Shown here in pieces: positions 2,102 through 62,459 of a stretch of 64,000 nt of DNA. The stretch lies in sequence record NC_129898.1, one strand, 5' to 3'. The notes beneath the pieces are model-generated. The model saw only the letters and a program-made list of their open reading frames with translations, searched no databases and was not told the DNA's origin. The number at the start of each line of letters is the position of its first letter. Position 1 is the stretch's first letter. Source of the stretch: a phage. A program made the position numbers and the translations under genes.

Positions 2102-2112
2102 GGCGGCGAGAT

Positions 2113-2799
2113 ATGGCAGAGATTAAGTCGGATGTCAACCACATCCACACTCTGCCAGATTTTGTTCAGGGAGGTCTTGACTACCTACCTGGAGATTTTC
2201 TGGCTGAGAAGGTTAATTTAGTCACATTCTTAACCGTGTACCTTAAAAGGTTGGAGAATGTTGATAAGATGCTGGTAGGTTTGGCTGAAGGAAGACTGCT
2301 TAACAATGCCAGCGGAAGATACCTTGACGAAGTTGGTAATCAACTTGGTATTCTTAGGAATGGGCTTTCAGATGCAGATTTTCGTGCTACCTTGGTTATT
2401 CAGCAAGCAGCAGCATCAAGGGGTGGGACTCGCGAAGATGTCATCTCCACCTTGCGACAATTGTTCGGAAGAGACAATTTCGATACGTGGAAAGGGGACA
2501 ACTTCAGGTTTGACATAAACATTAGAAAAACCTGCTTTGACATACTGCAGTCTATCGACCAGATCTTAGATATGCTGCCATTGCCTTGTCATTTGCGTCT
2601 TACAGAGTCGCAAGGGCAAGCTTTTGGTTTTGAAGGGGACTCTACAGCTCTCGGCTTCGGGTCGGTGTGGGAAGAAAACCAGTTCGGTGTTGGAGGGTTG
2701 GCTACTTTGCTATATGTTCCTGACGTAAGACCTGATTGGGACACCACAACTATTTATTGTGAAAGTATTACAGTAAACGCAACTAGACAGGAGGGTTAA
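2113..2799 (+). CDS. hypothetical protein, putative structural
   Basis: 228-aa ORF tightly packed in the structural operon; stop overlaps the next start (TAATG). Confidence 0.6.
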   Translation: MAEIKSDVNHIHTLPDFVQGGLDYLPGDFLAEKVNLVTFLTVYLKRLENVDKMLVGLAEGRLLNNASGRYLDEVGNQLGILRNGLSDADFRATLVIQQAAASRGGTREDVISTLRQLFGRDNFDTWKGDNFRFDINIRKTCFDILQSIDQILDMLPLPCHLRLTESQGQAFGFEGDSTALGFGSVWEENQFGVGGLATLLYVPDVRPDWDTTTIYCESITVNATRQEG

Positions 2800-49454: not shown

Positions 49455-50082
49455 AGACAGAAAAGTATGTGGTCGTGGAGTAAACGATTTAAAAGACAAA
49501 GTCCCAATGTACCAATCTGTTAATGGTAAGAGAGTACCAGAACCCCACTATGCTACATGGAAAGCATTATTCCAGAGGTGCTACGGCGATAACTCAAAGT
49601 ACCATACAGGTTGTGAAGTTGTAGAAGATTGGTGGTTGTTCTCAGAATTCTGGAAATGGATGGATACACAAGAGTGGAAAAGAGACGCTAAGAAGTTCAC
49701 TCTTGACAAAGATCTGAAAATCCCTGGAAACAGAATATACTCCCCAGAAACATGCATGTTTGTTCCACCACAAATAAACACCCTATTTGGCATAAGACAG
49801 GCAGCACGAGGGGATTTACCTTTGGGTGTGACACTTAGAAAAGATGTAAACAAGTATCTCGTGCATTGTCATCGAGATGGAAAAATTGTTCATGGCGGTC
49901 ATTTCGATGATCCACAGACAGCACACAAGGTGTGGCAAGAAATGAAACTTGAGGAGATGAAACTTCAGGCTATTAAAAACAAAGATGAGATTTGGCTGTT
50001 CGCCATTAAACGTGCAATAACTATCCTTGAGAATGATTTGAAAAATAATAAGGAGACTATAACATTGGTGAAATTTATTTAA
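49438..50082 (+). CDS. AP2-domain protein, putative HNH-AP2 homing endonuclease
   Basis: ATG 49438; C-terminal GVTLRKDVNKYLVHCHRDGKIVHGGHFDDPQTAHKVW resembles the AP2 DNA-binding domain; N-terminal W..F..RCY...GC.V...W.FSEFWKWM motif. Confidence 0.5.
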   Translation: MGIPVKDRKVCGRGVNDLKDKVPMYQSVNGKRVPEPHYATWKALFQRCYGDNSKYHTGCEVVEDWWLFSEFWKWMDTQEWKRDAKKFTLDKDLKIPGNRIYSPETCMFVPPQINTLFGIRQAARGDLPLGVTLRKDVNKYLVHCHRDGKIVHGGHFDDPQTAHKVWQEMKLEEMKLQAIKNKDEIWLFAIKRAITILENDLKNNKETITLVKFI

Positions 50083-50411
50083 GATATTTATGGTAGTATT
50101 TATTTTAAAATTATAAAAATTTTAGGCGATGAGGGAAAATATGTAATGGATTTTCCCTTATTTATCAGATATTTGCAGATATTTGGAAATCCTTAGAAAA
50201 TCAGAAAATGGATCGAAAACTAAAATGGATTTTTTCAAGACAGGCACGATAAGCTGCGCTGCTCATTCTATCGTTCGCACCGTACTTCAAATCACCATTC
50301 CAGATTTTCCGCACATACTCTCACCCCTCTGCCAGAACTTTCCCAACTTACCTTCAGCCTTTTATGACAATAAGTTAATTATTATCAGTAAGTTTTGATA
50401 CATCTCTCTCA

Positions 50412-50495
50412 GTACTCGATCTGTTTTTCATTTCAAAGATTGGATTTTCTGAAAATTTTTCTCGATAAATTTTTCGGTACTCGATCTGTTTTTCG
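50412..50495. repeat. 18-bp perfect direct repeat pair (gtactcgatctgtttttc) in an AT-rich non-coding block
   Basis: Copies at 50412-50429 and 50478-50495; further short repeats (aaatggatttt, ttttcgttttc) nearby. Confidence 0.85.
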
Positions 50496-50730
50496 TTTTC
50501 TGAATCGGATTTTCTTGAAATTGGTCCAGCACCAGATCTAAAATTTTTGGGAACGAAAGCGATTTTTCGTTTTCAGAAATGGATTTTTAAAATTTCTATA
50601 TGGGAATATTTTATGAGGTATTATTTTATATAGAATTGTCACGGTAGGTAATTAGCATGCTAACTAAATTTATGAAATGCGAAAAGTTCTCATTTAGAAT
50701 TTTGAATGATAATCATTCTCGTTTGCAGAA

Positions 50731-50906
50731 TAACGGGCACCCCCGGTGATTGTCTCCCGGCCCCTACTGCCCCGGCTTGTTATTATAGTATCACACAGGA
50801 CAAAGAAAGCAAGAAGTTTTTGCATAAATTTTTAGACGATAATGATAATCGTTCTCATTTCATGCAGCGCCCATCCCCGGTGGTTGTCTCCCCCGTCACC
50901 GGTGCC
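50731..50906. repeat. two direct copies of a roughly 45-70 bp dyad-containing repeat unit
   Basis: acgggcacccccggtgattgtctcccggcc at 50731 and cccatccccggtggttgtctcccccgtcaccggtgcc at 50870; inverted copy at 59118-59160. Confidence 0.85.
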
Positions 50907-51064
50907 TGCCGTCCTTTCGATATGTATATTGTGCCACCTGGCGGGGCCGCTGTCAACACTTTTCAAAAAAATTCTAACCTGATGCGCTAACCGTTGCAAC
51001 CTGGCGGGGCCAGCCTGGTGGGCCTATGCTATAGGATAGTAACAATTGAAGAGGAGGTACAAAA

Positions 51065-51181
51065 ATGGAAGGTAATATGATCCCCCTGGAAAATGTAGCT
51101 ATTAATGACGCTGAGGCTATCGCCCTGGTTGAAAAGGCTATGGCGGGAGCGTTGGAACATAAAGAAGAGTACGAAAAATGA
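51065..51181 (+). CDS. small hypothetical protein (38 aa)
   Basis: ATG after RBS GAGGAGG; below the track size cut-off. Confidence 0.35.
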   Translation: MEGNMIPLENVAINDAEAIALVEKAMAGALEHKEEYEK

Positions 51182-51243
51182 CGGTTAACCTGGCAGGGGC
51201 GGCGGCTGGGGAATTTTGCCCAAAAAATAATTTTAACTAGTGG

Positions 51244-51272
51244 TTGACAGCTCGGACAGTTTTTGTTATTCT
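51244..51272 (+). promoter_or_regulatory. sigma70-like promoter (TTGACA-17-TATTCT)
   Basis: Consensus -35 with 17-nt spacer. Confidence 0.5.
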
Positions 51273-51325
51273 TATCCTCGCAAGGTGAACAACACCACAC
51301 TAATTAACAGAGAGGATAAAAAATC

Positions 51326-51523
51326 ATGAACGCCTACGGAATCAAAGTACGTCGCAGCACTCGCCAGGTGGTCACCGATCAAATGATTTGCCAGGTGGAT
51401 GTGACCATCAACAACGGGCAAGGCCTTTATAAATTCCGTCGCGGTCAGAGCTATACCCGGCAACAGCTTAATCGTTGCGCCCTGACAAAAGGCCAGATCA
51501 ACCACTGGTTTAATAAAAAATAA
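51326..51523 (+). CDS. hypothetical small basic protein
   Basis: 65 aa after RBS GAGAGGA. Confidence 0.5.
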   Translation: MNAYGIKVRRSTRQVVTDQMICQVDVTINNGQGLYKFRRGQSYTRQQLNRCALTKGQINHWFNKK

Positions 51524-51526
51524 GTA

Positions 51527-51555
51527 TTGACATATAGGCCGACACCAAATACACT
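51527..51555 (+). promoter_or_regulatory. sigma70-like promoter (TTGACA-17-TACACT)
   Basis: Hexamers with 17-nt spacer upstream of the ORF at 51588. Confidence 0.5.
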
Positions 51556-51587
51556 AAAAGCACAAAAGACACTGAGAGGATAAAATC

Positions 51588-51986
51588 ATGAAAACCACCA
51601 CCTTTAATTTTGATAATGCGGACTTTTCTTTTTCTGATGTCAAAAACTGCCGCCGTGATCGTGGATTTTACAAGGCCTATAATCTGGTGGGCCTGGACGA
51701 TGACAATAATTTGCACGAAGTAGCTGAGATCCGGTATTATGCCGCCGCCAGCGGGAACACTTACTACTGCGTTTTTTGGATACACGACAACAAGAACAAT
51801 AAGTACGGCTATACTGGCGGCAAGGCGAGCGGTCACGGTTACGATAAAGCTAACGCAGCACTTGAGAGCGCATTAAATGCTATGGGGATCACTGCCGACG
51901 GCTGGATCTACGAAGAAGAGTTTTTGTCGGCACTTGCTGCCCATCTAGGGTATAAAAAGCACATTGTGACATGTGCCCACGAATAA
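51588..51986 (+). CDS. hypothetical protein
   Basis: 132 aa after RBS GAGAGGA. Confidence 0.55.
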   Translation: MKTTTFNFDNADFSFSDVKNCRRDRGFYKAYNLVGLDDDNNLHEVAEIRYYAAASGNTYYCVFWIHDNKNNKYGYTGGKASGHGYDKANAALESALNAMGITADGWIYEEEFLSALAAHLGYKKHIVTCAHE

Positions 51987-51991
51987 AAATC

Positions 51992-52048
51992 ATTGACACG
52001 CTGCAAAATTCAAGTAAACTAGACACAAAAGGCGGGAATGTTTCCCGC
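51992..52048 (+). promoter_or_regulatory. promoter plus 5'UTR stem-loop cassette (TTGACA ... ggcggg-aatgtt-tcccgcc)
   Basis: -35 TTGACA at 51992, -10-like aaacta, perfect stem-loop at 52030-52048, then aacacaaa and RBS. Confidence 0.5.
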
Positions 52049-52068
52049 CAACACAAAGGAAAAAGATC

Positions 52069-52473
52069 ATGAATAAGAACGTACGCCGCATCATGAACGA
52101 GTTGGCAAACGATGAAAAAATTATTGACATGCATTTGATCAACATTTGCCGCCGTTGTGTAACATATAACAACCGCGCCGCAAAAGCGCGTGAGATGAAC
52201 GCAAAAGGCACCTTAAAGCCATTCCAGGTGGTGGTAAAGGCCATTAAAAATGTAACTAATACGGCAAACCAGGTACAGGGGAACACCAACGAGAGTACCA
52301 ATATTGATCCGGCTTACATCATGAAACGGATCCGGACCTATAAGAACAAAGAGCAAGTGTATAATGTTATAGACTGGTTGGATTCTATGGGCGACGTGGT
52401 GTACAATAGATTCTCGGCAGCTATTGAGATCCAGCTTGACAGGTTGGACGGTAAAGTACTGAAAACTTATTAA
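52069..52473 (+). CDS. hypothetical protein
   Basis: 134-aa ORF. Confidence 0.55.
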   Translation: MNKNVRRIMNELANDEKIIDMHLINICRRCVTYNNRAAKAREMNAKGTLKPFQVVVKAIKNVTNTANQVQGNTNESTNIDPAYIMKRIRTYKNKEQVYNVIDWLDSMGDVVYNRFSAAIEIQLDRLDGKVLKTY

Positions 52474-52484
52474 GTTTATTTTTA

Positions 52485-52508
52485 GATGGCCTTGACTCTA
52501 GGGCCATC
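52485..52508 (+). repeat. conserved hairpin element gatggccttgactctagggccatc (copy 1 of 4)
   Basis: 7-bp stem with TTGACT in the loop; preceded by tttatttttag and followed by aataaagtaaac; copies at 53107, 53437 (variant), 56829. Confidence 0.8.
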
Positions 52509-52553
52509 AATAAAGTAAACTAGTCTCAACTAAGCGAAAAAGGGGGCTTTAAG

Positions 52554-52673
52554 ATGAGCACTACACGCCAATACACAAAGGTAACTATTATCGTTTGCGT
52601 TGTCGGTTACATCCTGGCGCAAATGTTAATGAGTAGCGCCAACAGTTTTGCAAAATTTTTCTTAAATTTTTAA
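52554..52673 (+). CDS. small hydrophobic peptide (39 aa)
   Basis: ATG after RBS AAGGGGG; central hydrophobic segment. Confidence 0.4.
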   Translation: MSTTRQYTKVTIIVCVVGYILAQMLMSSANSFAKFFLNF

Positions 52674-52730
52674 TTGACAAGTAAATCTCAATAAGTATAC
52701 TTAAACACGTAAACGGGAAAACTTCCCAGA
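52674..52730 (+). promoter_or_regulatory. promoter plus stem-loop cassette, copy A (TTGACA-16-TATACT, degenerate stem-loop)
   Basis: Nearly identical over about 55 nt to the cassette at 54512-54568. Confidence 0.55.
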
Positions 52731-52752
52731 ACACACAAAAGGAGAAAACACC

Positions 52753-53094
52753 ATGACTACTATGACCGCCGCAGAAAAAGCTATGCAGATCGCCGCGCTG
52801 AAAAAACAGATCGCAGACCTTGAGAACAAGATCGATAACTTTGAAATCGACGAGGACAAGTACGACGAAAACTATAATGAATGGCTAGACGAGATCCACG
52901 GCGAAATTATGATCGGTAACATTTCTTTTCTTCCGTCGCGTATCCTCAAAGAGTTAGATCCTATTGCTTACCGCTGCGGATTTAGCGATTACATCGATAG
53001 CCTGGATATTGAGGACGATGAAGAGTACCAAGAATTGCAGATAGAGCTGGGAGAAGTGAAAGAGGAGCTTTCAAAGCTGGAAGAGAACGAGTAA
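52753..53094 (+). CDS. hypothetical acidic protein
   Basis: 113 aa after RBS AAGGAGA. Confidence 0.55.
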   Translation: MTTMTAAEKAMQIAALKKQIADLENKIDNFEIDEDKYDENYNEWLDEIHGEIMIGNISFLPSRILKELDPIAYRCGFSDYIDSLDIEDDEEYQELQIELGEVKEELSKLEENE

Positions 53095-53106
53095 AATTTA
53101 TTTTTA

Positions 53107-53130
53107 GATGGCCTTGACTCCAGGGCCATC
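53107..53130 (+). repeat. conserved hairpin element (copy 2)
   Basis: gatggccttgactccagggccatc with the same flanks. Confidence 0.8.
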
Positions 53131-53181
53131 AATAAAGTAAACTTTACACTGTTAACACTGAACTAATGAGGAGTTAAAACT

Positions 53182-53427
53182 ATGGCAGCACTAATCACCA
53201 AATATTATGCGCCTACCAACACAAAAAGCGCCCGTATCATGGTAAAAGGCTTCGGACGTAAAAAGGTTTACGCCTGGGACTATTCCCTAGATATGGAAGA
53301 CAATTATACCAACGTAATGACCGATTTTATTAATGATCTGAATAAACAGATCTTAACCGACTACAAAGTGACCGATATTGCTTACATAGGTGAAGGCGGG
53401 ATCTGTTTTGTAGGCATTGTGAAATAG
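53182..53427 (+). CDS. hypothetical protein
   Basis: 81 aa after RBS GAGGAG. Confidence 0.5.
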   Translation: MAALITKYYAPTNTKSARIMVKGFGRKKVYAWDYSLDMEDNYTNVMTDFINDLNKQILTDYKVTDIAYIGEGGICFVGIVK

Positions 53428-53436
53428 TTATTTTTC

Positions 53437-53460
53437 GGTGGTCCTGGTTGCAGGGCCATC
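53437..53460 (+). repeat. conserved hairpin element (copy 3, variant)
   Basis: ggtggtcctggttgcagggccatc with a similar 5' flank. Confidence 0.6.
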
Positions 53461-53502
53461 TATAAAGATAATTTATTAACACCATGAAAGGAGAAAGTAC
53501 AC

Positions 53503-53856
53503 ATGATCAGCGGGGCTAGTTTTATTATTGGCGCTATTGCTACGGCTTTAATTGTAAACAAGATCCAGGATAAAAAGGAAAGAGGAAGTACCGCCCTTGC
53601 AGAATATCCATTTTGGACATTTAACGATAACGAAGATTATATTATAAAGTATAAAAATAAAGAAGGCGACCAAGTAACACCGCGACCGATCCCGGCTTAC
53701 AAAATGCAGGAAACACTATACCGCTTGGAGGCGGGGGGCGCAAAAATTGTTGACTTTTGGGGATACGACCACACAGATCAGGAAGTTATAAAGCGCCGTA
53801 TCCGGGCTATTCAGGCCAATATTGAGGTTAACAAGGGGGGAATATATGAAAATTAA
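53503..53856 (+). CDS. hypothetical protein with N-terminal hydrophobic segment
   Basis: 117 aa after RBS AAGGAGA. Confidence 0.5.
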   Translation: MISGASFIIGAIATALIVNKIQDKKERGSTALAEYPFWTFNDNEDYIIKYKNKEGDQVTPRPIPAYKMQETLYRLEAGGAKIVDFWGYDHTDQEVIKRRIRAIQANIEVNKGGIYEN

Positions 53857-54043
53857 TTTCGAGAAAATTGTAAAGCGCCCTCATGATTCCGAAGAGTTGC
53901 CAGAACGCCGACAGCGCAACAATAAACTGAATAAGCCAAAAAGGTTTGGGAAGATCTGGCGGAATCATTATGATCGTAAATTGCCCGGCCTACTTTTGGA
54001 ACGTGAACGACAGGCAGAACGATACCGCCATAAAGACAAATAA
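53846..54043 (+). CDS. small basic protein
   Basis: ATG 53846 after RBS AAGGGGGG (track begins at 53822). Confidence 0.45.
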   Translation: MKINFEKIVKRPHDSEELPERRQRNNKLNKPKRFGKIWRNHYDRKLPGLLLERERQAERYRHKDK

Positions 54044-54049
54044 CAACCA

Positions 54050-54080
54050 ACGCCCCGCCATTGTGCGGGGCTTTTTATTT
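54050..54080 (+). terminator. rho-independent terminator
   Basis: Hairpin ccccgc-cattgt-gcgggg followed by ctttttattt. Confidence 0.65.
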
Positions 54081-54201
54081 CTATCCTACGAATAGCGCCC
54101 CTGGTTGGCCCTGTAAGCGCCAAAAAGGCCCCCACCTATGCAATCGCCCCCTTTAACCTGAAAACATCGCTCAGGGCCGTTTTATAGCGTTAAAAATATC
54201 A

Positions 54202-54229
54202 TTGACATCGTCAACAGGTTAGCTATACT
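54202..54229 (+). promoter_or_regulatory. sigma70-like promoter (TTGACA-16-TATACT)
   Basis: Upstream of RBS AAAGGAG and the ORF at 54262. Confidence 0.5.
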
Positions 54230-54261
54230 AACCACATCAAAGAGAGAAAGGAGTAAACGCC

Positions 54262-54522
54262 ATGCGTAAATTAAAAAATTTTGATAAAGTTGATGTTATC
54301 CTGAATAATTTTTACTACTGCAACAACAAGGCTATTTGGTGGCGGGATAGTTCCACCGATAAAGTCAAGGCGCGCTTTCTTCAGGGGCACTGGCAAGGCC
54401 GCCCAGTGATTAAAATCATGGGGCAATTGGTAGCGTTTAAAAATTGCCGCCGTGTTGATGACGTTGAGGAGATTTTAAACATTTTGCGCCACAATAATTT
54501 AAAAAATAGTGTTGACAAGTAA
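54262..54522 (+). CDS. hypothetical protein
   Basis: 86-aa ORF. Confidence 0.5.
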   Translation: MRKLKNFDKVDVILNNFYYCNNKAIWWRDSSTDKVKARFLQGHWQGRPVIKIMGQLVAFKNCRRVDDVEEILNILRHNNLKNSVDK

Positions 54523-54568
54523 ATCTCAATAAGTATAATTAAACACACAGGCGGGAAAACTTCCCGCC
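54512..54568 (+). promoter_or_regulatory. promoter plus stem-loop cassette, copy B (TTGACA-16-TATAAT, ggcggg-aaaact-tcccgcc)
   Basis: Consensus promoter then perfect stem-loop at 54550-54568; duplicate of the cassette at 52674. Confidence 0.6.
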
Positions 54569-54596
54569 ACTAACAAAGAAAACAGGAGAAAATATC

Positions 54597-55220
54597 ATGA
54601 CCACCGTTAACATTACCACAGGTTACAATTTATCTTTCGACGTGCTGACCGACGAACAAAAAGAAAAAGCCATTGAAATGGTCCGCGAAAGAGAAGAACG
54701 CAGCGGGGATGATTTTTTCGCAGAAAATGTAATTGATTACTACAAAGAATATATCTTTCCAGAGTACGGCCTTGAGGATACCGAAGTACATTGGTCCGGC
54801 TTTTGGTGTCAAGGCGATGGCGCATCGATTAGTGCTGAAAATGTAGACTTAGAAAAATTCTTGCGTAAAGTCAAGGCCCTGACCAAGTTCAGATCAATTC
54901 GTCACTTGTTCGGCACAATGCACGATGGCGAACTATCCGCCAGTGTTGAACGCGACAAGTACAGCCATTACAGCCATGAAAACACTGTAAGCGGGTACAT
55001 TGATACCACTTGGATAGATCTGACCGCCAAACAAGAAAACAAAGTGGAAGATCTGGAAGAATTGATCACCGAGACGGTACGGGAGCTATCCCGCAAGGTT
55101 TACGTAGACCTTGAGGAGGCCTATCTAGAACAGTTCACCGCAGAAAACCTGATCGGCCTTATTCAGGCCAATGATTGGCGGTTTGATGTCGATGAATATG
55201 GTGAGATGACTTTTTCATAA
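54597..55220 (+). CDS. hypothetical protein
   Basis: 207 aa after RBS AGGAGA. Confidence 0.55.
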   Translation: MTTVNITTGYNLSFDVLTDEQKEKAIEMVREREERSGDDFFAENVIDYYKEYIFPEYGLEDTEVHWSGFWCQGDGASISAENVDLEKFLRKVKALTKFRSIRHLFGTMHDGELSASVERDKYSHYSHENTVSGYIDTTWIDLTAKQENKVEDLEELITETVRELSRKVYVDLEEAYLEQFTAENLIGLIQANDWRFDVDEYGEMTFS

Positions 55221-55228
55221 ATAAAGTG

Positions 55229-55289
55229 TTGCAATAACCTAAAAACCTGCTATATTAAAACTCAAGGCGGGCGAGACGTTTGCCCGCCA
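55229..55289 (+). promoter_or_regulatory. promoter plus stem-loop cassette (TTGCAA-16-TATATT, ggcgggcgagacgtttgcccgcc)
   Basis: Stem-loop at 55267-55289 followed by aacacaaa and RBS AGAGGA. Confidence 0.5.
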
Positions 55290-55313
55290 ACACAAAACAA
55301 AGAGGATAACATC

Positions 55314-55694
55314 ATGAAAAATACTACCAAGGCTATTGACACCGTTATGTTTAACCTGGTTACATTCCGTGAAGATATGAAAGATCTTCCGCGTGAAACA
55401 GTGTGCGACCATATCGAAAACTATCGCAAACTAATCAAAGAGTTGCCTTTAAAACGTGATCAATATGCGGCTAACGCCATGCTTAATGCCATGATCAAAA
55501 AGATGATCCAGTGTGATTTAACCCTGGCCTATGATTATGCAGGCGGTCGTTTTGCAGTATACAATCAGCCCGTGCCCGGTATGAGTACCACCGAAGAATT
55601 GCACGCGCTCAATCTAAAACAGGACGTGTGGGATAGTATGCCTCGCGTGGTGGTATGGGTAGAAAGCGGAAAGATTTACGGCGATAATTTTTAA
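55314..55694 (+). CDS. hypothetical protein
   Basis: 126-aa ORF. Confidence 0.55.
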   Translation: MKNTTKAIDTVMFNLVTFREDMKDLPRETVCDHIENYRKLIKELPLKRDQYAANAMLNAMIKKMIQCDLTLAYDYAGGRFAVYNQPVPGMSTTEELHALNLKQDVWDSMPRVVVWVESGKIYGDNF

Positions 55695-55758
55695 TCAGGT
55701 AGCAGGCGGCATATTTGCCGCCTTATTGTTGATCAGAACTGCAAAAGAGGTACATAGA

Positions 55759-56130
55759 ATGGAATTTATTATTTTGGCTGTATTGGTTGCCTTATTTAAC
55801 GCCTGGATCGCTGGCAAGATGGGAAGATCCGCCTTTTTATGGTTTATTATATCTATTTTCCTGGGGGTGGTTGCAACTATTGTATTGGTTATCCTTGCAA
55901 TTGTTGACAAGGGGAATAATAGAAAGGGTAAAGTATTTTCAGACCTGTACGACGCTCAAACTTTTGTTAACGCCTATTATAGTGATCTCCCAGTCTCCCT
56001 ACGTTGCAGCCTTGCACAACAGGTTTTCGATGAAGCTAAAACCAGAGACCACGCCCATGAGATTTGTTTAACTGAGGCGGATCGCTTATTTGAGAGGAAT
56101 AGAAAATATGTGGGCCAGCCGTTTAAATAA
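55759..56130 (+). CDS. membrane protein (two predicted TM segments)
   Basis: ATG 55759 after RBS AAGAGG (track begins at 55726); hydrophobic helices. Confidence 0.5.
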   Translation: MEFIILAVLVALFNAWIAGKMGRSAFLWFIISIFLGVVATIVLVILAIVDKGNNRKGKVFSDLYDAQTFVNAYYSDLPVSLRCSLAQQVFDEAKTRDHAHEICLTEADRLFERNRKYVGQPFK

Positions 56131-56329
56131 TACCACGTTAATTAATCCATTTAGTGAAGATTTGAGGCCAGCCGCCTGGCGGGATGGATTCAATAACGAA
56201 AAATTTACTTTTAGGCCTGATCTTGAGGAATTTTATAACAATGGATCGAACAACGACAGAGATAATTTTTCTTGCGGTGTGTGTCGTGATCGGACTACTG
56301 GGAGCCATTGCAAACCACGTAACCGCTAA
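56108..56329 (+). CDS. hypothetical protein (alternative frame 56241-56366 also possible)
   Basis: ATG 56108 after RBS GAGAGGA; overlaps a second plausible small TM ORF in another frame. Confidence 0.3.
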   Translation: MWASRLNNTTLINPFSEDLRPAAWRDGFNNEKFTFRPDLEEFYNNGSNNDRDNFSCGVCRDRTTGSHCKPRNR

Positions 56330-56349
56330 CAGAAGGAAAGGGGGAGACG

Positions 56350-56469
56350 ATGACACCCAAGGATAAGCCCCGCACCGATAAGGCGCGCCGTGTTATGGTA
56401 TGGCTGGAGATCATCGCCCTTGAAATATTGTTAGGCGTAGGGATGTATTTTATCGCCGTACGTACCTGA
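56350..56469 (+). CDS. small membrane peptide (39 aa)
   Basis: ATG after RBS AAGGGGGAG; hydrophobic C-terminal half; terminator follows. Confidence 0.45.
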   Translation: MTPKDKPRTDKARRVMVWLEIIALEILLGVGMYFIAVRT

Positions 56470-56473
56470 TAAC

Positions 56474-56506
56474 GGCCCCCGATCCCTGGGGGCCTGACTT
56501 TTTTCA
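56474..56506 (+). terminator. rho-independent terminator
   Basis: Hairpin ggccccc-gatccct-gggggcc followed by tgacttttttc. Confidence 0.65.
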
Positions 56507-56528
56507 AAAAAATTTTTCTTCCGGGGTG

Positions 56529-56582
56529 TTGCAATCCGGTCCGGGATATGGATAATAACAATCAACGGGGAGACACTCCCCA
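56529..56582 (+). promoter_or_regulatory. promoter plus stem-loop cassette (TTGCAA-16-GATAAT, ggggag-acac-tcccc)
   Basis: Shares the spacer core atatggataataa with the cassette at 57347. Confidence 0.5.
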
Positions 56583-56615
56583 CCACACAGACAAAGTTCC
56601 AAAAGGAGAAACAAA

Positions 56616-56816
56616 ATGAGCAACAATATCCGCGTTATTAATTTCAAAAAAGAAGAAAAAATCGCTGTGCTGGTTGATGGTCAAGAAATATTCAAGGGGT
56701 ATTATGAAGATCATCAGGCGGCGATCAGTATTACCCGCGTAATTGGTTACCATAATTTTTACCCTCAAGGCGCTGAGGCAGCAGTAAAACGAATTAAAGA
56801 GATCGTAGGCCTGTAA
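56616..56816 (+). CDS. hypothetical protein
   Basis: 66 aa after RBS AAGGAGA. Confidence 0.5.
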   Translation: MSNNIRVINFKKEEKIAVLVDGQEIFKGYYEDHQAAISITRVIGYHNFYPQGAEAAVKRIKEIVGL

Positions 56817-56828
56817 AATTTATTTTTA

Positions 56829-56852
56829 GATGGCCTTGACCCCAGGGCCATC
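56829..56852 (+). repeat. conserved hairpin element (copy 4)
   Basis: gatggccttgaccccagggccatc with the same flanks. Confidence 0.8.
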
Positions 56853-56902
56853 AAATAAAGTAAATTTAAACCCTGCTAAAATAATCAGTGCAAAAAGGAG
56901 CA

Positions 56903-57208
56903 ATGATCATGTTTATACCCGCCAATAATCTTTATTTCTTTGATGGTCAGATCGTAGACGGCGTGGAAGTTGAGATCACTGGATGTCAAGGCGGCCAGGT
57001 AATGATCTTCCGCAATAGTGCCTTTAACGATCATTTTATTACAATGACTGTGGAAGTTAAAAAGCTGGATGATAAGAAAACACTCATTGACTATTCCGTG
57101 AAAGATCATCCAGACTACCACATGATCTATGGTGATTTGTGCATTGTTGACCGTGACAAGGTGGGCGGCATTGTGATCGCTATTGTGAACGATGTTTTCT
57201 CTGAATAA
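56903..57208 (+). CDS. hypothetical protein
   Basis: ATG 56903 (or 56909) after RBS AAAGGAG (track begins at 56888). Confidence 0.5.
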   Translation: MIMFIPANNLYFFDGQIVDGVEVEITGCQGGQVMIFRNSAFNDHFITMTVEVKKLDDKKTLIDYSVKDHPDYHMIYGDLCIVDRDKVGGIVIAIVNDVFSE

Positions 57209-57346
57209 TTCCGGCAAATGATGCAAAATAAGGCCCATGGCAGGGCCTGCAGCGATATAATCACACAAAGGCTATGCGGTTGCATGGCCTTTTTTATTTT
57301 AGCGCTACAGCGGCCCCCAAGGCGTTTAAAAAATTTTTAAAAGTAC

Positions 57347-57398
57347 TTGCATCAAGTCCGACAATATGGATAATAAGACTTATCAGGGGGCGGCCCCC
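57347..57398 (+). promoter_or_regulatory. promoter plus stem-loop cassette (TTGCAT-16-GATAAT, gggggcggccccc)
   Basis: Hexamers with 16-nt spacer, stem-loop at 57384-57398, then RBS and ATG 57431. Confidence 0.5.
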
Positions 57399-57430
57399 AA
57401 TCATTAACCGGATAGATAGGAGTTAAAATC

Positions 57431-57715
57431 ATGGCTATTGTTACTGTTGGCGATGTAGTAGAAATGGAAGCAAAATACTTAAAAGCGGGTATGCATATCC
57501 TACGCAACGATCTTGAACTAGTCCTGACAATGGTCGACTATAATCCCGGTCAGGATTATCCAAGCATCGACTACTTTTTCCAGTATGTTGATGAAGAATT
57601 AAAAGAGGATGAGGCTTATCAGGGTGAATTTTGTAATTTCTTTTGCCCTGACGAGATTGTAAAAGTTATCTATCAACCTGGCGTACCTTTCCCGTTGCAC
57701 GCCATCAATAAATAA
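57431..57715 (+). CDS. hypothetical protein
   Basis: 94 aa after RBS TAGGAG. Confidence 0.55.
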   Translation: MAIVTVGDVVEMEAKYLKAGMHILRNDLELVLTMVDYNPGQDYPSIDYFFQYVDEELKEDEAYQGEFCNFFCPDEIVKVIYQPGVPFPLHAINK

Positions 57716-57778
57716 GCCTGGCGGGGCCGAAAAAGGCCCCTCCTGAAAATATGAAAAAATAAAGATAGGTGAATCATC

Positions 57779-58012
57779 ATGATGGAACAAATTAAACGCG
57801 CTGAGGCTATTAATGGTAATGTGATCTATTTTGTCAGCAAAAACGAAAAAGGCGTACCCTATGCGGCGGTAATAGTACAGCCTGACGGCGATTATTGGTG
57901 CACTGTGTACGGCGCTTATTCTTTTGGGCGTCCAGTGCATGATAAAATTTTGAAAGTAGCGAACCCTACCGGGAAAAATATCACAGCAGAAAAATTTTTT
58001 GAAAATAGTTGA
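57779..58012 (+). CDS. hypothetical protein
   Basis: 77-aa ORF. Confidence 0.5.
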   Translation: MMEQIKRAEAINGNVIYFVSKNEKGVPYAAVIVQPDGDYWCTVYGAYSFGRPVHDKILKVANPTGKNITAEKFFENS

Positions 58013-58076
58013 CAACAAACAACAATCTAACAAAGCATAATACATAAGGCGGCAATGATGCCGCCAACATGACAGA

Positions 58077-58340
58077 ATGAGAAACATCATTTACAGACTG
58101 ACAAAACGCAACATTATGATCGCCACCGTGATCGCTTGCCTTTTCGCTTTCGTGAGTAACGCAACGTTTAACGCCGTGGGCGGGGCGATGTTTAATGCTG
58201 GCAGCGTTTCAACAGCTAACACAATGATCGATTGTTTGCAACTTTTCTTTTATGTTGCCTTTCGTTTAAAAATAGCTTGCAAGGTAGACCGTTTTGATTT
58301 ACCTTTCATTTGTGGCGGCGTGATCGCTATCGTATGTTAA
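58077..58340 (+). CDS. hypothetical hydrophobic protein (start uncertain)
   Basis: 87 aa; preceded by a TTGACA promoter-like site and stem-loop ggcggcaatgatgccgcc; weak RBS. Confidence 0.35.
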   Translation: MRNIIYRLTKRNIMIATVIACLFAFVSNATFNAVGGAMFNAGSVSTANTMIDCLQLFFYVAFRLKIACKVDRFDLPFICGGVIAIVC

Positions 58341-58507
58341 GGATCAGAAGATGGGAAAACTCTCAATTCTGTTGTTTTATCAAAAACCTTGACAATATCA
58401 GAATGTACAGACGGTTAAAAATAATTGTTGACACCAGGCGCGGATCTGGTAAAGTGTACGACATAGGGCGGGGCAATAAGGCAACGCCCATTAATGATGG
58501 TGGAATC

Positions 58508-58612
58508 ATGTTAGAAAAAATTTTCACGGTTGTAGTAGTTGGCATGGCATTATCGGTTGGAGTGGTTGCAACTATGGCTAACATGATCCTATCTTCCCAC
58601 GGTATCGGGTAA
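58508..58612 (+). CDS. small membrane peptide (34 aa)
   Basis: Internal ATG of track ORF 58310-58612; the region upstream of it carries promoter-like sequence, so the longer ORF is unlikely. Confidence 0.3.
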   Translation: MLEKIFTVVVVGMALSVGVVATMANMILSSHGIG

Positions 58613-58613
58613 G

Positions 58614-58838
58614 GTGAAACAAATGATCACGAACAAAACAGGGAAAACGGAATTTTTACGCGGCTTGCAAATAGGCAAGCCTGAGATCTGGCATTGCACT
58701 AAAACACCACGTGACGAAATGAAAGACTTTACCGCCACGCTGAAGCGGGTAAAAATATCCATTACGCAGAAAAAAGCCTTGATAGTGGTGGAAGGTGAGA
58801 TCCCTCAAACCGTTGTTATTGTTGAGCGTACAGCATAG
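58614..58838 (+). CDS. hypothetical protein
   Basis: 74-aa ORF. Confidence 0.45.
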   Translation: MKQMITNKTGKTEFLRGLQIGKPEIWHCTKTPRDEMKDFTATLKRVKISITQKKALIVVEGEIPQTVVIVERTA

Positions 58839-58927
58839 TTTAATCTATACCGTACGCCCCATTGACTAACAAAGCATAAGCAGGCGGCGGTGACCGCCTT
58901 GAACGCAACAGAAAGAGAATAGAAAAC

Positions 58928-59062
58928 ATGAGAAAGATAATTATTACCATGGGGATCGTGGCGGCAATGTTGGCGATCTTTCCCTTTATGGTTAGGTATG
59001 TGCTGATCAGTGTTGTCCTGATAGGCAGTGATCTATTGGAAACGGTTGGCAACTGGTTTTAA
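58928..59062 (+). CDS. small membrane peptide (44 aa)
   Basis: Manual ORF, strongly hydrophobic; preceded by a promoter-like site and stem-loop ggcggcggtgaccgcc. Confidence 0.35.
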   Translation: MRKIIITMGIVAAMLAIFPFMVRYVLISVVLIGSDLLETVGNWF

Positions 59063-59117
59063 GATAATAAACAGGGCTTGAAATGGTCCTGTTTTTTGTT
59101 ATACTTATCTCACGGGT

Positions 59118-59160
59118 GGCACCTGGCGACGGGGGGAGACAATCACCGGGGGTGCCCGTT
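59118..59160. repeat. inverted copy of the 50731/50870 dyad repeat unit
   Basis: gggagacaatcaccgggggtgcccgtt is the exact reverse complement of 27 nt at 50731-50757; the extended match resembles the 50870 copy. Confidence 0.85.
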
Positions 59161-59182
59161 ATATAAAAAACTATAAAAACAG

Positions 59183-59211
59183 TTGACATCTGCCAGGTGG
59201 TTAGGTAACAT
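59183..59211 (+). promoter_or_regulatory. sigma70-like promoter (TTGACA-17-TAACAT)
   Basis: Followed by short stem-loop ggggcaaaagtgccc and RBS GAGAGGA before ATG 59266. Confidence 0.5.
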
Positions 59212-59265
59212 TTATCTTGAAGGGGCAAAAGTGCCCACACAACAACCGGAAGAGAGGAAAACATT

Positions 59266-59538
59266 ATGTCAAGCTGGATTAATCAAGAAATCGAATCACG
59301 TTTTAATGCTATTTGGGATCTCATCGAAAAAGAGGACGGAACATCAAGCCCTTATCTCAATAACCTGGAATTTCATTTTGTGGAAGCGATGAACGCAGAA
59401 CATGATCACGAAGGTGGCGCGGATGAGTTCGCTCAAGGGTATGGCTTCAACAATGCCAACGAAATGATTGAGGCGGTTGTACTTCAGGCTGAGGAAGATT
59501 ATCAATTAAAAACACTTGAATTTTGCCGCCGTAAGTAA
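59266..59538 (+). CDS. hypothetical acidic protein
   Basis: 90-aa ORF. Confidence 0.55.
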   Translation: MSSWINQEIESRFNAIWDLIEKEDGTSSPYLNNLEFHFVEAMNAEHDHEGGADEFAQGYGFNNANEMIEAVVLQAEEDYQLKTLEFCRRK

Positions 59539-59599
59539 TAAGATAATGACACTGGCCAAAAGGCCCACCAAACCAGAACCCCATAAAGAGGAAAACATC

Positions 59600-59863
59600 A
59601 TGAAACGCCTTGATCAGCTCAAACTAGTTCAGTACATGGCCTACAAAGTTATTGAAGTCCAAAAAGGTAGTAAAAAGGAGGTTTGCGAGAAAGCGTACAA
59701 GATCTTTACTCGTAAAAAAGATGATTGGATGTTGCGCCAGACCAAAAAGGCTGATATCCTGGGGTACCTGGAAGAAGAGATCCGGCTTGAAGAGCAAGAA
59801 GAGATCCGCCGAAGTGAGGCAGATTATCAGGCAGCTTGGGAAAGCTGGATGAGCAACAAATAG
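59600..59863 (+). CDS. hypothetical protein
   Basis: ATG 59600 after RBS AAAGAGGA (track begins at 59516). Confidence 0.5.
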   Translation: MKRLDQLKLVQYMAYKVIEVQKGSKKEVCEKAYKIFTRKKDDWMLRQTKKADILGYLEEEIRLEEQEEIRRSEADYQAAWESWMSNK

Positions 59864-59875
59864 TACAACATTATC

Positions 59876-59910
59876 AAGGGGCCTTAAGGCCCCTTTCTTT
59901 TTTGTTTTCT
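59876..59910. terminator. rho-independent terminator ending the plus-strand early block
   Basis: Hairpin aaggggcc-ttaa-ggcccctt followed by tcttttttgtttt. Confidence 0.7.
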
Positions 59911-60510
59911 CTTTTCCTACCATAAACGGCCCCGCCTGGCAAGTGGAATAATTAACGAGCCATCAATCCCGCACACTGTACAAATATACATGTAAAATAG
60001 TTATTGCATAACCTTTCATTGTGTGGTAGCGGTGCTATTTTTACCTGTTTTCTCTCCCAAAATTGCACGTAATGCAGCTATTGCACAAAATTTAACCTGA
60101 TGCACATCTTCAGTATACTGTCAACAATTAAAAACCCTTATAAGTCATACACTTACACAAACCAAAAAGCGCGTCCTACGTGAAAAATCGGGTGTAACTA
60201 TAGCCGACAGATCTCAGAATCCACGTACGATCACCATTCTATAGCCTGCAAAGTATTTATTCCAACCACAGAATAACGGAATAGTCAATACCTGTACAAA
60301 ATAATTATTCGTACAAACTGCATAACATAAACCTGCCCAGGTGTCAACATTTTTCGTAAACAGTTAGAAATTGTCACGATAGGTTACTATAATCAGAGAA
60401 ATATTTAGTCGTCTAATGTTTACTGTACATAACTATACTGACTGGAATCATTAGATGACTAAGAGAAAGATAAGAAATAGTTAACAATGTAATTGTTTTA
60501 CCTGTAACAA

Positions 60511-60707: not shown

Positions 60708-60761
60708 AGAAACGCCCGAAGGGGTGACCTAGTCACCTGGCATAGCCAGCGAAATATTATT

Positions 60762-60824
60762 AACTTGTTAATTGTCAGCTTGTTGGCTGTTAGCTTGTCA
60801 ATTGTTAACTTGCTAATTGTTAAA
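60762..60824. repeat. four tandem copies of a 15-bp unit (agcttgtYaattgtt)
   Basis: acttgttaattgtc agcttgttggctgtt agcttgtcaattgtt aacttgctaattgtt read directly. Confidence 0.8.
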
Positions 60825-62459
60825 CTCGGGAGCATAGCCCTCGTCTCAAGGGTGTTATCATGCAAACGAATGTCATGGCTTATCATCTATGCGTAAACTG
60901 TCAGGGTGTAGACTATTCAGGCGTAAACAGTCTATGCGGGAACAATCTATACGTGAACAGTGAAATATGAAATAATAACAGTCGTTATTGTATCGAAAGT
61001 GTATAAGGTGTCAGATTATGGCATATTGTGTGACATTGTGTCAGACAAGTTTTTCTCCTCTTTGTCAAGTGCTGCATGGAAAATTTACAATCTGGTATGG
61101 TAGCATTTTTGCGGCCCTGTTTACATTCAGGAGTGTATGTATAACCCTTGTTGTGTGGGCGTTTAGACGTCTGGACGGTCAGAAGTCTGCAGGTTAATAT
61201 CTAATCTATTGGTCGCTAACTATATCCCCCACAAATAATAAGAAATGCAATTGTTATATGCGTAAACAGTAACTCATGTTATCAATCCCTGTATGTATCG
61301 CCAGTGGTGCGCATAATGGGTATTATGTTAAATTGCCCGTAATGATAACAGTTCTCACAATGATAGGTATTCTCATTCACCCCCACAAAATAGATTGCAA
61401 ATGTTGTGCCACTGTGTGAACGGCCTCGCCTATTAATTTGCCTCACTGCTCCGATATTTGAGAATTGTTATAAGAATGAGAAGTATTCCCATTTCGTCCG
61501 CCTGGCAGCGCTCCTGTAGGTCAGGTCAAAATCGTGGTAGAACTGGACCCCTTCAGATATTTCTAGCTGACTCTTCAGGCCTGTGTGGGAAAAGCCAACC
61601 TCTCCGGCGGGGCAGGGGGGTCAATTAAAAAATTTACGTAGGGTACGAAGCGCTCTTCAGGTAAGGCATGTATTAGAGGATGAAACCCTCTTCAGGTGAT
61701 GATATTTGTGGGTGTGATATTTGCTGGAAAGCCAGATATGACGGGACTACCGGCGGGGATGGGGTAGTATAGGCAGGGAAAATGTGGAGAATGTGGTTGG
61801 TAAATTTATCAGGCAGGTAGAGTATGGGATATGTTACAGGTATGTTAAATATGGAGGTAGGATATTTGTAAGATTTGTGTGTAAAATCAAAGACTTAAGT
61901 GGTGTTGTGGTATTTTCTATAAATAATTCAAGTTTAATAGGTAATATTTGTCTCTATCCACTTTGTGGGGTAAACAGATTCTAATTGAATTGGTTTACAA
62001 GTGTATATAAAGTATACAAATTAAAGATATAAGAAACCCCCCTCCCCCTTCGGCTACCATTCACCTTTTCCTCTGACTGGTACTTAAACACTTATTCAGA
62101 CTCTTCAGGTTATCACCCATATACTATATGGCAGTGACTGGTGTCCTCTGGCCCCTCTTTCGTCACCCGTCCGCTTCGCCATGCTAATGCCATAGCTAAA
62201 GGTTCGGTTGTTCACCCTGTTCACTCAGGTGTATCTCCATACCCCTTCAAACCGAAGAGAACAGAAAACCCGAATTACTCGGTAAAAGAAAAGAGAAGAA
62301 CTTAATTTTATCAGGATAGGCAAGAATGTCAAGGCATGACTGCTCACTAAACAAGCAAACAGTCATGTGTGGGAGGTAAGTGATTGTGGTGGTAGGAAAT
62401 TTAGTTGAAAGATGTGTTATAGGTGCTTCCAGCACTTTAGCCGGGCAGCTAATTGTGTG

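Follow-up and report, generated by a model that had tools for sequence, protein, structure and literature searches.

Near-identical GC-rich units beside an early gene block of an rV5-like coliphage: candidate promoter-proximal control elements

What is the role of three near-identical GC-rich units that enclose a block of very small genes in a virulent coliphage? The question is raised by a 64,000-nucleotide (nt) stretch of sequence record NC_129898.1, referred to below as the window, in which two direct copies (units A and B) and one inverted copy (unit C) enclose ~25 annotated small genes. The original prediction viewed the copies as brackets around an 8.3-kb module that is a unit of recombination, inversion or acquisition, or else as boundary or processing elements. 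On balance, the analysis described here makes it probable that the units instead are paralogous promoter-proximal leader or operator cis-elements with linker behavior like that of the PeSL cassettes of T4-type phages, and not recombination sites. The phage is an rV5/FV3-like virulent coliphage (Vequintavirus). Its sequence between positions 50300 and 59400 is 96.5% identical to that of the close relative FV3 across 99% of the length and is matched by 249 phage records. The window maps on the complete FV3 genome (136,947 bp) from position 29729 backwards via the start of the record to ~102.7 kb. Coliphages of this genus have a broad host range and have been widely put forward for therapy and biocontrol; their early programme is practically uncharted.

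The predicted GC-rich repeat was borne out, with copies at the positions listed in Table 1. A repeat search recovered inverted arms at 50730-50758 and 59134-59162 that are 100% complementary: the exact inverted repeat that was proposed is real, but its length is 29 nt rather than 27 nt. When the 64 kb were searched with the 18-nt core CCCCGGTGATTGTCTCCC allowing up to three mismatches, matches were detected at 50741 (+ strand, no mismatch), 50875 (+ strand, one mismatch) and 59134 (- strand, no mismatch). Shuffled sequences gave an expectation of 0.05, and none of 100 shuffles reached three matches. The whole FV3 genome possesses the same three core copies and no others, and both there and in the window the units occupy two intergenic loci only. 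Unit B is a tandem paralogue situated 134 nt downstream of A, and the left part of C is the same as A over the 29 nt exactly. The part that is common to all three units is the 17-mer CCCCGGTGATTGTCTCC. The internal dyad that had been ascribed to the repeat is genuine in C and also in B, which share the hairpin CCGGTG(A)/(T)CACCGG with the loop UUGUCUCCCCCCG, but A diverges from both past the 17-mer. Unit C folded better than shuffled sequence, with z scores of about -2.7 for the - strand and -1.1 to -1.6 for the + strand, and the CR8 orthologue also exceeded its shuffles (z = -2.9).

Promoter-like sites were surveyed on the GGAGACAA strand in the window, FV3, Gotham, L006, L039, CR8, POP18, R7, ChuuTotoro, the Phapecoctavirus copies and L119. 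Each true copy is accompanied by such a site, which agrees with the consensus at 9-11 of 12 positions, or at 7/12 with an extended -10 box; the TG extension is frequent. The distance from the end of the -10 box to the 17-mer is 22-30 nt, and 36 nt for B. With a start ~7 nt past the -10 box, the 17-mer would be positioned at ~+16 to +32 in A and in metagenomic copies and further downstream in C and B. The units lie directly downstream of these predicted promoters on the GGAGACAATCACCGGGG strand, so that transcription of A and B would run leftward and that of C rightward, in each case out of the block. The TACTAT box of the leftward site at A is overlapped by a perfect TATAAT at 50782-50787, and equivalents of this leftward site that match at 9-11/12 positions are present in every other lineage (CR8, POP18, R7, ChuuTotoro, L006, L039 and L119). 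Unit A also is approached from the opposite side by a weaker rightward site whose predicted start coincides with the first bases of the unit and which faces the leftward site. The hexamers of this rightward site are identical in POP18, R7 and L119, and TTGAAT and CAGAAT also are found in CR8. Overall, the leftward promoters surpass the rightward one in strength and consistency; the latter is weak but carries the operator.

Site-specific inversion or excision, in which the units would act as crossover sites that move or flip the 8.3-kb block, can draw on the exact 29-nt inverted repeat, on the dyad in C, on the location of the copies on either side of an ORFan block and on the fact that the copies do exchange sequence. 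Short inverted repeats flanking a multi-kilobase segment also are characteristic of the Gin/gix, Hin/hix and Cin/cix systems. However, those systems differ in having an invertase gene, in the occurrence of a second orientation and in a segment that comprises alternative tail-fibre genes instead of early ORFans. No serine or tyrosine recombinase, integrase or invertase was found among the 223 annotated features of FV3, and the ten module proteins that were tested gave PHROG matches solely to families of unknown function and no informative Pfam or PHROG match. A simulated A-C inversion junction was compared with 50,697 phage records: 146 had matches to both halves taken separately, but the junction itself was covered by none of them. 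Relatives display the same synteny, with the order A+ B+ C- in all six genomes that have all three copies. Moreover, exact identity between the copies drops to 14-23 nt in relatives, and inversion would set ~25 co-directional early genes against the flanking transcription. The repeats also do not flank the whole small-gene region as had been supposed, as ORFans extend ~9 kb further upstream (FV3_183-205) and two more are downstream of unit C. With no annotated recombinase, no inverted junction and a single orientation, the view of the block as a unit of inversion, recombination or acquisition is already largely refuted and is considered very improbable.

The exchange of sequence between copies was of a different kind. 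The exact run shared by A and C extends over 29 nt in the window compared to 14 nt in FV3, 17 nt in Gotham, 23 nt in slur16 and 14 nt in CM1. Unit C begins with the A-like sequence ataACGGGCA in the window and FV3, and with atGACAGGCA in the other phages. In MiataMamis, C shares a 34-nt exact run with B, and a cacC/cagG polymorphism is present in A and C of different phages. These patterns demonstrate that the inverted copies do recombine, as short conversion patches, and gene conversion is the only recombination between copies that was seen. The exact 29-nt repeat is a recent conversion event that is specific to the lineage.

The design of the early module places unit C in a broader context. 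The strong + strand promoters at 51993, 54512, 55229, 58428 and 59183 each have a GC-rich hairpin within ~10 nt, and unit C behind the 59078 promoter is the strongest such hairpin (-23 kcal/mol). The loop of the terminator at 59069-59094 holds the -35 box of the 59078 promoter. Comparison of the phage with HMD-6, FV3, Gotham, MiataMamis, slur16 and CM1 revealed recurrent mosaic breakpoints at 57222, 58002/58014, 58924/58941 and 59062/59069. The last of these is the left edge of the block that comprises the terminator, the promoter and unit C, and relatives carry 220-580 nt extra there. Together with its terminator-promoter cassette, unit C starts at exactly the point at which relatives have inserted or replaced cassettes. 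The suggestion that the repeats are boundary or processing elements therefore holds in a weaker sense, as probable promoter-proximal regulatory units of which C is at a cassette edge, but they are not generic terminators: there are three copies per genome only and no U tract is directly 3' of them. A T run was not detected after any unit on either strand, and the units are not among the 25 terminator-like sites that were located in 49800-60500. No gene family that is shared downstream of the copies emerged when the neighboring genes were compared.

The C-type copy of the phi92-like phage PD06 arrived with neighboring genes whose proteins are 90-95% identical and now stands before a different gene; PD06 also has its own A-type copy. 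Positions 1517-4771 of PD06 (L041) correspond to 57779-59062 of the window, with five or six early genes of 71-95% protein identity in a rearranged order. As PD06 belongs to a different subfamily, the match points to a recent exchange of early cassettes between subfamilies. Three other repeat families also are distributed within the module. In family D1 (52461-52521, 53083-53143, 53413-53473 and 56805-56865) the -35 box TTGACT is in the loop of a stem of the form ATGGCC...GGCCAT, family D3 is located at 52674-52739 and 54512-54577, and family D4 at 52031, 54550 and 55270. D1, D3 and D4 are terminator-promoter or promoter-hairpin repeats between small genes and look like PeSL cassettes.

In T4-type phages, PeSL elements comprise strong sigma-70 early promoters and G/C stem-loops that flank ORFans and mediate their shuffling (Arbiol et al. 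2010, PMC2839356; see also PMC4122927). The shuffling relies on homologous recombination and involves no dedicated recombinase (PMC2839356). The window shares with these elements a repeated intergenic cassette that has a strong sigma-70-type early promoter and, as in unit C, a G/C-rich stem-loop in a hyperplastic region of small ORFans, patches of homology for insertion, deletion and replacement of cassettes without a dedicated recombinase, and a -35 box within the loop of the preceding terminator, as noted for the 59078 promoter. The units have the promoter-like site (10/12 with TG for B and C, 7/12 with TG for A) and the variable intergenic position among ORFans. The stem-loop is evident in C, at -23 kcal/mol with z = -2.5 to -2.7, whereas A and B are no better than shuffles. 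Other features set the units apart from PeSL: the phage group here is the Vequintavirinae; the units have in common, 3' of the -10 box, an asymmetric and invariant 17-mer that unrelated phages conserve as well; two units point away from genes; and one is set in a locus where promoters face each other beside operator palindromes.

Stem-loops at 5' termini are known to stabilize messenger RNAs, including those with the ompA 5' untranslated region and phage early transcripts. Unit C and at least five other promoters of the module resemble this arrangement in that a GC-rich hairpin lies a few nt from the predicted start. However, a stabilizer of this type needs no conserved loop sequence, whereas the 17-mer is invariant, and A, B and the metagenomic copies are without a significant hairpin.

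The surroundings of unit A are more widely conserved than those of C. Within the 800-nt non-coding stretch 50300-51100, only 50676-50760 is conserved beyond the genus, at 80-88% over ~76 nt, with homologues in Certrevirus, Mydovirus, Seunavirus, Serratia and Pectobacterium phages and Phapecoctavirus (Stephanstirmvirinae). The conserved segment contains palindromes, the overlapping weak rightward promoter and the first bases of unit A, and the GC-rich unit itself spans the ~46 nt between the two facing predicted start sites. Unit A is the orthologue of an element that is conserved across the Vequintavirinae and Stephanstirmvirinae. The palindromes have the consensus GAAATGAGAATCATTCTCATTTC and are present in 2-6 tandem copies. 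They resemble the Fur consensus GATAATGATAATCATTATC (PMC4506495): the segment 50838-50856 matches at 17/19 positions, for which 0.01 occurrences are expected by chance, and 50702-50720 matches at 15/19. Of 14 further loci that were scanned, 12 have a match of 14-17/19 next to the unit. At A the Fur-like operator overlaps the rightward site (TTGAAT, 18 nt, CAGAAT; 8/12), whereas B is without an acceptable promoter of that polarity.

When AATGAGAA-N3-TTCTCATT was searched with up to three mismatches, six palindromes were recovered in the window compared to 0.56 expected. Three are beside A and B and three are within the final 160 nt of the terminal repeat, the nearest copy being 9 nt from the boundary of that repeat. 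The whole FV3 genome shows the same two clusters and one weak single match. Mydovirus KPP-1 (L340) likewise has palindrome clusters in and next to its terminal repeat and at an A-type locus 8.3 kb away; in that record the palindromes are at 116713-117441 and 125152-125181. The ligand of the palindromes could be host Fur or a phage protein. As in Fur-regulated promoters, the palindromes match at 15-17/19 positions, are present in 2-6 tandem copies and lie over the -35 box and spacer of a promoter. In contrast to such promoters, the phage is virulent, its half-site consistently is TTCTCATT and not TTATCATT, and the same palindromes are in the terminal repeat where there is no evident promoter.

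Outside Vequintavirus, the conserved block runs for ~330 nt and ends in a hairpin CGUUAGCCCCGC...GUGGGGUGGCG followed by UUUUCUCUUCUGU. As the hairpin has three G-U pairs, it folds on the rightward strand only. This architecture suggests a candidate non-coding RNA of ~205 nt that would be produced in other genera from the palindrome-controlled promoter. The candidate RNA had no Rfam match at E values up to 5. No compensatory pairs emerged when the block of these other genera was examined for covariation and with alifold, as the stems are nearly invariant. At L170:757-962, L040:6000-6212, L173:760-966 and ten other loci, the ~330-nt block, which includes CTACCGGCGATCCACCTTCC and the terminator-like hairpin, is more conserved than the neighboring genes. 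In GAP31 and Mydo a small leftward DUF7170 gene is located just beyond it.

The distribution of the 17-mer outside this phage group was assessed by exact scans. Among 185,579 species genomes there were 48 matches in random taxa, none in Enterobacterales and none with a perfect -10 box nearby. As this number is about that estimated for chance, the host is not the source of the element. A BLAST search of 5,426 E. coli genomes with the unit produced nothing, although matches of up to 17 nt are invisible at E values up to 10 in 28 Gb, so that this null result provides only weak evidence. Metagenomes yielded 115 matches, and in 16 of these the opposite strand bears a perfect TATAAT at a distance of 22-24 nt; a second TATAAT was reported at 33 for two of these 16. 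They comprise four Vequintavirus-like contigs and lineages with otherwise unrelated flanks (L229/L234/L248, L245, L272 and L338). One such contig bears four copies and has no nucleotide similarity to any deposited phage, and the contig behind L022/L033 had no match among deposited phages at the nucleotide level. Such invariance of an asymmetric 17-mer among phages that are unrelated speaks for its recognition by a specific factor. In the metagenomic contig Ga0255090_1000022 (L248:3820 and L229:1993), the 17-mer is immediately followed by GGGGTAGCGTG or GGGGCAGCGTG and then by a T run. The ops element, GGCGGTAGCGTG, recruits RfaH, and these two sequences differ from its last 11 nt (GCGGTAGCGTG) at 1-2 bases, which may be coincidence. 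Identity with ops was discarded as the resemblance is limited to one metagenomic lineage.

The favored explanation may be formulated as follows. The element would be transcribed as a 5' leader, most clearly in C where a stable 5'-terminal hairpin resembles those of other early promoters. Alternatively or additionally, a sequence-specific factor may bind the element and control the output or stability of transcripts. Unit A would be the ancestral copy, set between face-to-face promoters in the conserved control region, with B as a tandem duplicate of A and C as a dispersed copy behind a terminator-promoter cassette. The inverted arrangement would reflect where the copies landed, their near-identity would be maintained by gene conversion, and the cassettes would act as homology linkers for shuffling by general recombination instead of as targets of a site-specific recombinase. 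Several observations weigh against this explanation. All promoters and start sites are consensus matches, and the factor that would recognize the 17-mer is hypothetical. Units A and B fold no better than shuffles and the metagenomic copies have z scores of about 0, so that a conserved RNA hairpin is insufficient by itself to account for the invariant 17-mer. When G-U and A-C mismatches in A-type and C-type stems were compared by hand, their asymmetry favored neither strand. There is no leftward ORF to the left of A and B, and transcripts of these units thus would be non-coding. Furthermore, the opposite strand has a consistently placed, if weaker (8/12), promoter under operator-like palindromes, and outside Vequintavirus the hairpin and a U/C-rich tract ~205 nt downstream of the rightward promoter fit a rightward RNA.

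In a small-RNA interpretation, the units are conserved 5' ends of Fur-controlled small RNAs that are read on the CCCCGGUGAUUGUCUCC strand and expose a C-rich, anti-Shine-Dalgarno-like loop. PrrF1/PrrF2 and RyhB are tandem Fur-regulated small RNAs. By analogy, A and B would be arranged in tandem as two genes with separate Fur-type operators, a layout in which the pair does resemble PrrF1/PrrF2, and C would specify a ~95-nt RNA that terminates at 59069-59094, acting as a bidirectional terminator. Fur matches of 15-17/19 are directly upstream of A and B, the TTGAAT and CAGAAT hexamers are consistently placed with the -10 box ending 9-12 nt before the core CGGTG, and the segment conserved across genera takes in the operators and the promoter plus ~25 nt at the start of the putative RNA, as is typical of a 5'-end seed. 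The hairpin of other genera with its three G-U pairs and U/C-rich tract folds only on the strand that would be transcribed, unit C has its best folding z score, -2.7, on the - strand, and the loop in PD06 reads ACCUCC. However, the promoters are weak (8/12), B has no acceptable -35 box, and C has a poor -35 box and no Fur-like box. The metagenomic lineages have no promoter on that strand and perfect extended -10 boxes on the other. A and B are without a convincing terminator, and the window lacks the downstream block and terminator of other genera and has the A/B duplication in their place. The tandem genes, the ~95-nt RNA from C and the proposal as a whole each are considered doubtful.

The palindrome clusters and GC-rich units also might constitute a boundary or origin element that operates at the DNA level and is bound by a dimeric protein, either Fur or a phage protein. 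As a boundary, it would resemble the injection stop of T5, with one cluster at the terminus and the other ~10 kb inside; as an origin, the leftward promoter would produce a G-rich primer or R-loop RNA beside the AT-rich repeat region. All six palindromes are beside A and B or in the terminal repeat, with the equivalent clusters in FV3 and KPP-1 described above. The A/B locus is ~10.3-10.8 kb from the genome end, that is 7.5-7.9% of the genome, the stretch 50400-51060 is non-coding, repeat-rich and of 36% GC content, and RNA from the leftward promoter would be rich in G runs. The T5 pre-early genes are oriented toward the terminus, as are the tiny early genes that the locus bounds here at ~8% of the genome from the end. 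In a summary of Heusterspreute et al. (1987) and Davison (2015), the T5 injection-stop signal is described as non-coding DNA with repeats, inverted repeats, palindromes and boxes for host DNA-binding proteins, features that recur at the A/B locus, and Vequintaviruses are said to share the daunorubicin sensitivity of T5-like phages (PMC13250531). T5 differs in having 10-kb terminal repeats and DnaA boxes compared to 459 bp and Fur-like boxes in the phage examined here. Moreover, the argument is purely positional and the leading genome end is assumed, there is no palindrome beside C, the palindromes of the terminal repeat are on its far side here but on its near side in KPP-1, and GC skew provides no origin signal in the window. 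In these phages, two-step DNA transfer is a hypothetical mode of entry. Both the injection-stop and the origin variants are judged unlikely, and the remaining probability falls to some other explanation.

If the reading of the units as promoter-proximal cis-elements is correct, the early ORFan region of Vequintaviruses is organized and shuffled by promoter/stem-loop cassettes, the PeSL principle reaches another large phage group, and a specific cis-element is pinpointed as the 17-mer downstream of the -10 boxes of three promoters. The cassettes as such are nothing unusual. What was unexpected is the conserved 17-mer, and likewise the sharing of Fur-like palindromes between the locus and the genome end. 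It is a tentative proposal that these features define a new control locus of rV5-like and phAPEC8-like phages, with Fur-type operators, facing promoters and an invariant 17-nt element between them. If so, the most conserved non-coding locus carries operators that are like host Fur boxes and are repeated at the genome end, which may link the early programme, or DNA entry or replication, to the iron status of the host. The occurrence of the 17-mer at the same distance from the -10 box in unrelated uncultured phages then would imply a shared host or phage factor. Literature searches brought to light no account of the repeats, no transcriptome for the group and no mention of Fur boxes in phages of the rV5 type.

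Table 1. Positions of the repeat units and of predicted features near them in the window, with the promoter-like sites of relatives
Feature	Position	Strand	Details
Unit A	50730..50778	.	17-mer at 50741-50757: CCCCGGTGATTGTCTCC on +, GGAGACAATCACCGGGG on -
Unit B	50866..50908	.	17-mer variant CCCCGGTGGTTGTCTCC at 50875-50891; hairpin CCGGTG/CACCGG
Unit C, inverted	59113..59162	.	17-mer at 59135-59151; hairpin ACGGGUGGCACC...GGUGCCCGU read on +
Leftward promoter-like site into A	50785..50812	-	TTGCTT, 16 nt, TG-extended TACTAT; 7/12
Leftward promoter-like site into B	50928..50956	-	TTGACA, 17 nt, TG-extended CACAAT; 10/12
Rightward promoter-like site into C	59078..59105	+	TTGAAA, 16 nt, TG-extended TATACT; 10/12
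Site into C in relatives			TTGCAA instead of TTGAAA
Promoter-like site, L006 and L039			TTGACA, 16 nt, TATTAT; 11/12, TG-extended
Promoter-like site, CR8 and POP18			TTGCAA, 17 nt, TATATT
Promoter-like site, R7 and ChuuTotoro			TTGATC, 16 nt, TATTAT
Promoter-like site, L119			TTGACC, 17 nt, GATAAT
Weaker rightward promoter-like site at A	50702..50731	+	TTGAAT, 18 nt, CAGAAT; 8/12; overlapped by Fur-like palindrome
Second promoter-like site downstream of C	59183..59211	+	TTGACA, 17 nt, TAACAT; A-rich tract before, gene 59266-59538 after
Intrinsic terminator closing upstream early genes	59069..59094	+	10-bp stem, then T run
Two Fur-box-like palindromes beside A	50676-50694, 50705-50723	.	TTGAATGATAATCATTCTC; 15/19 vs Fur consensus
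Fur-box-like palindrome beside B	50838..50859	.	GATAATGATAATCGTTCTC; 17/19 vs Fur consensus GATAATGATAATCATTATC
Three further palindromes, inside terminal repeat	61341, 61359, 61475 (61341..61493)	.	
Terminal-repeat homologue (459 bp, annotated in phage Gotham)	61044..61502	.	95% identity to Gotham repeat

Every gene between ~23 kb and 60 kb is encoded by the + strand, in a series comprising rII, helicase, primase and DNA polymerase genes followed by ~50 small genes of unknown function. As the terminal repeat of Gotham maps to the window (Table 1), the physical end of the genome is placed ~1.9 kb to the right of C and ~10.3 kb to the right of A. A terminal repeat of 514 bp in Mydovirus KPP-1 is backed by read coverage and PhageTerm (PMC9862379).

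Other candidate identities for the units were considered and set aside. Rfam 15 returned chance-level matches only, none of which was on the units, both for the window (E values up to 1) and for six loci of other genera (E values up to 5). ARAGORN predicted no transfer RNA (tRNA). In the homologous Klebsiella phage region of OY978796.1 (L047:3004-3157), the annotated tRNA-Met and tRNA-Ile were not detected by ARAGORN. As none of the six annotated tRNAs of that locus was found, the tRNA-Met is considered spurious. Resemblances to Chi sites, sigma-54 promoters, T7-type promoters and the tail of a preQ1 riboswitch were dismissed by eye, as was a type I toxin-antitoxin locus for which there was no conserved small ORF.

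The coding sequence 50706..50990 (+ strand; FV3_00182), which is annotated in FV3 and Gotham and spans units A and B, also was judged to be spurious. Its equivalents in relatives have 7, 13, 26, 83, 92-96, 109 or 132 codons; the frame has no Shine-Dalgarno sequence, and its ATG codon is sited within the palindrome. The coding interpretation was rejected because the length of the frame is not conserved, which removes a spurious gene that has been carried through many annotated genomes.

Additional repeats are present in the non-coding DNA on both sides of the module. Just to the left of unit A, positions 50402-50587 contain three ~47-nt tandem repeats at a spacing of 65-74 nt that include TACTCGATC, in DNA of 36% GC content, with a 17-bp hairpin at 50543-50580. 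A related motif, TTCTCGATCGA, is found at the equivalent place in other genera. In the gene-free 2.2 kb that precedes the terminal repeat, runs of short direct repeats at 60755-60830 and 60880-60960 are composed of the units TTGTTAAC, TTGTCAAT and TTGCTAAT, followed by three motifs of the form GCGTAAACAGT. Downstream of unit B, the A homopolymer at 50961-50967 varies in length among close relatives, with A7 in the window, A13 in FV3 and further variants in others.

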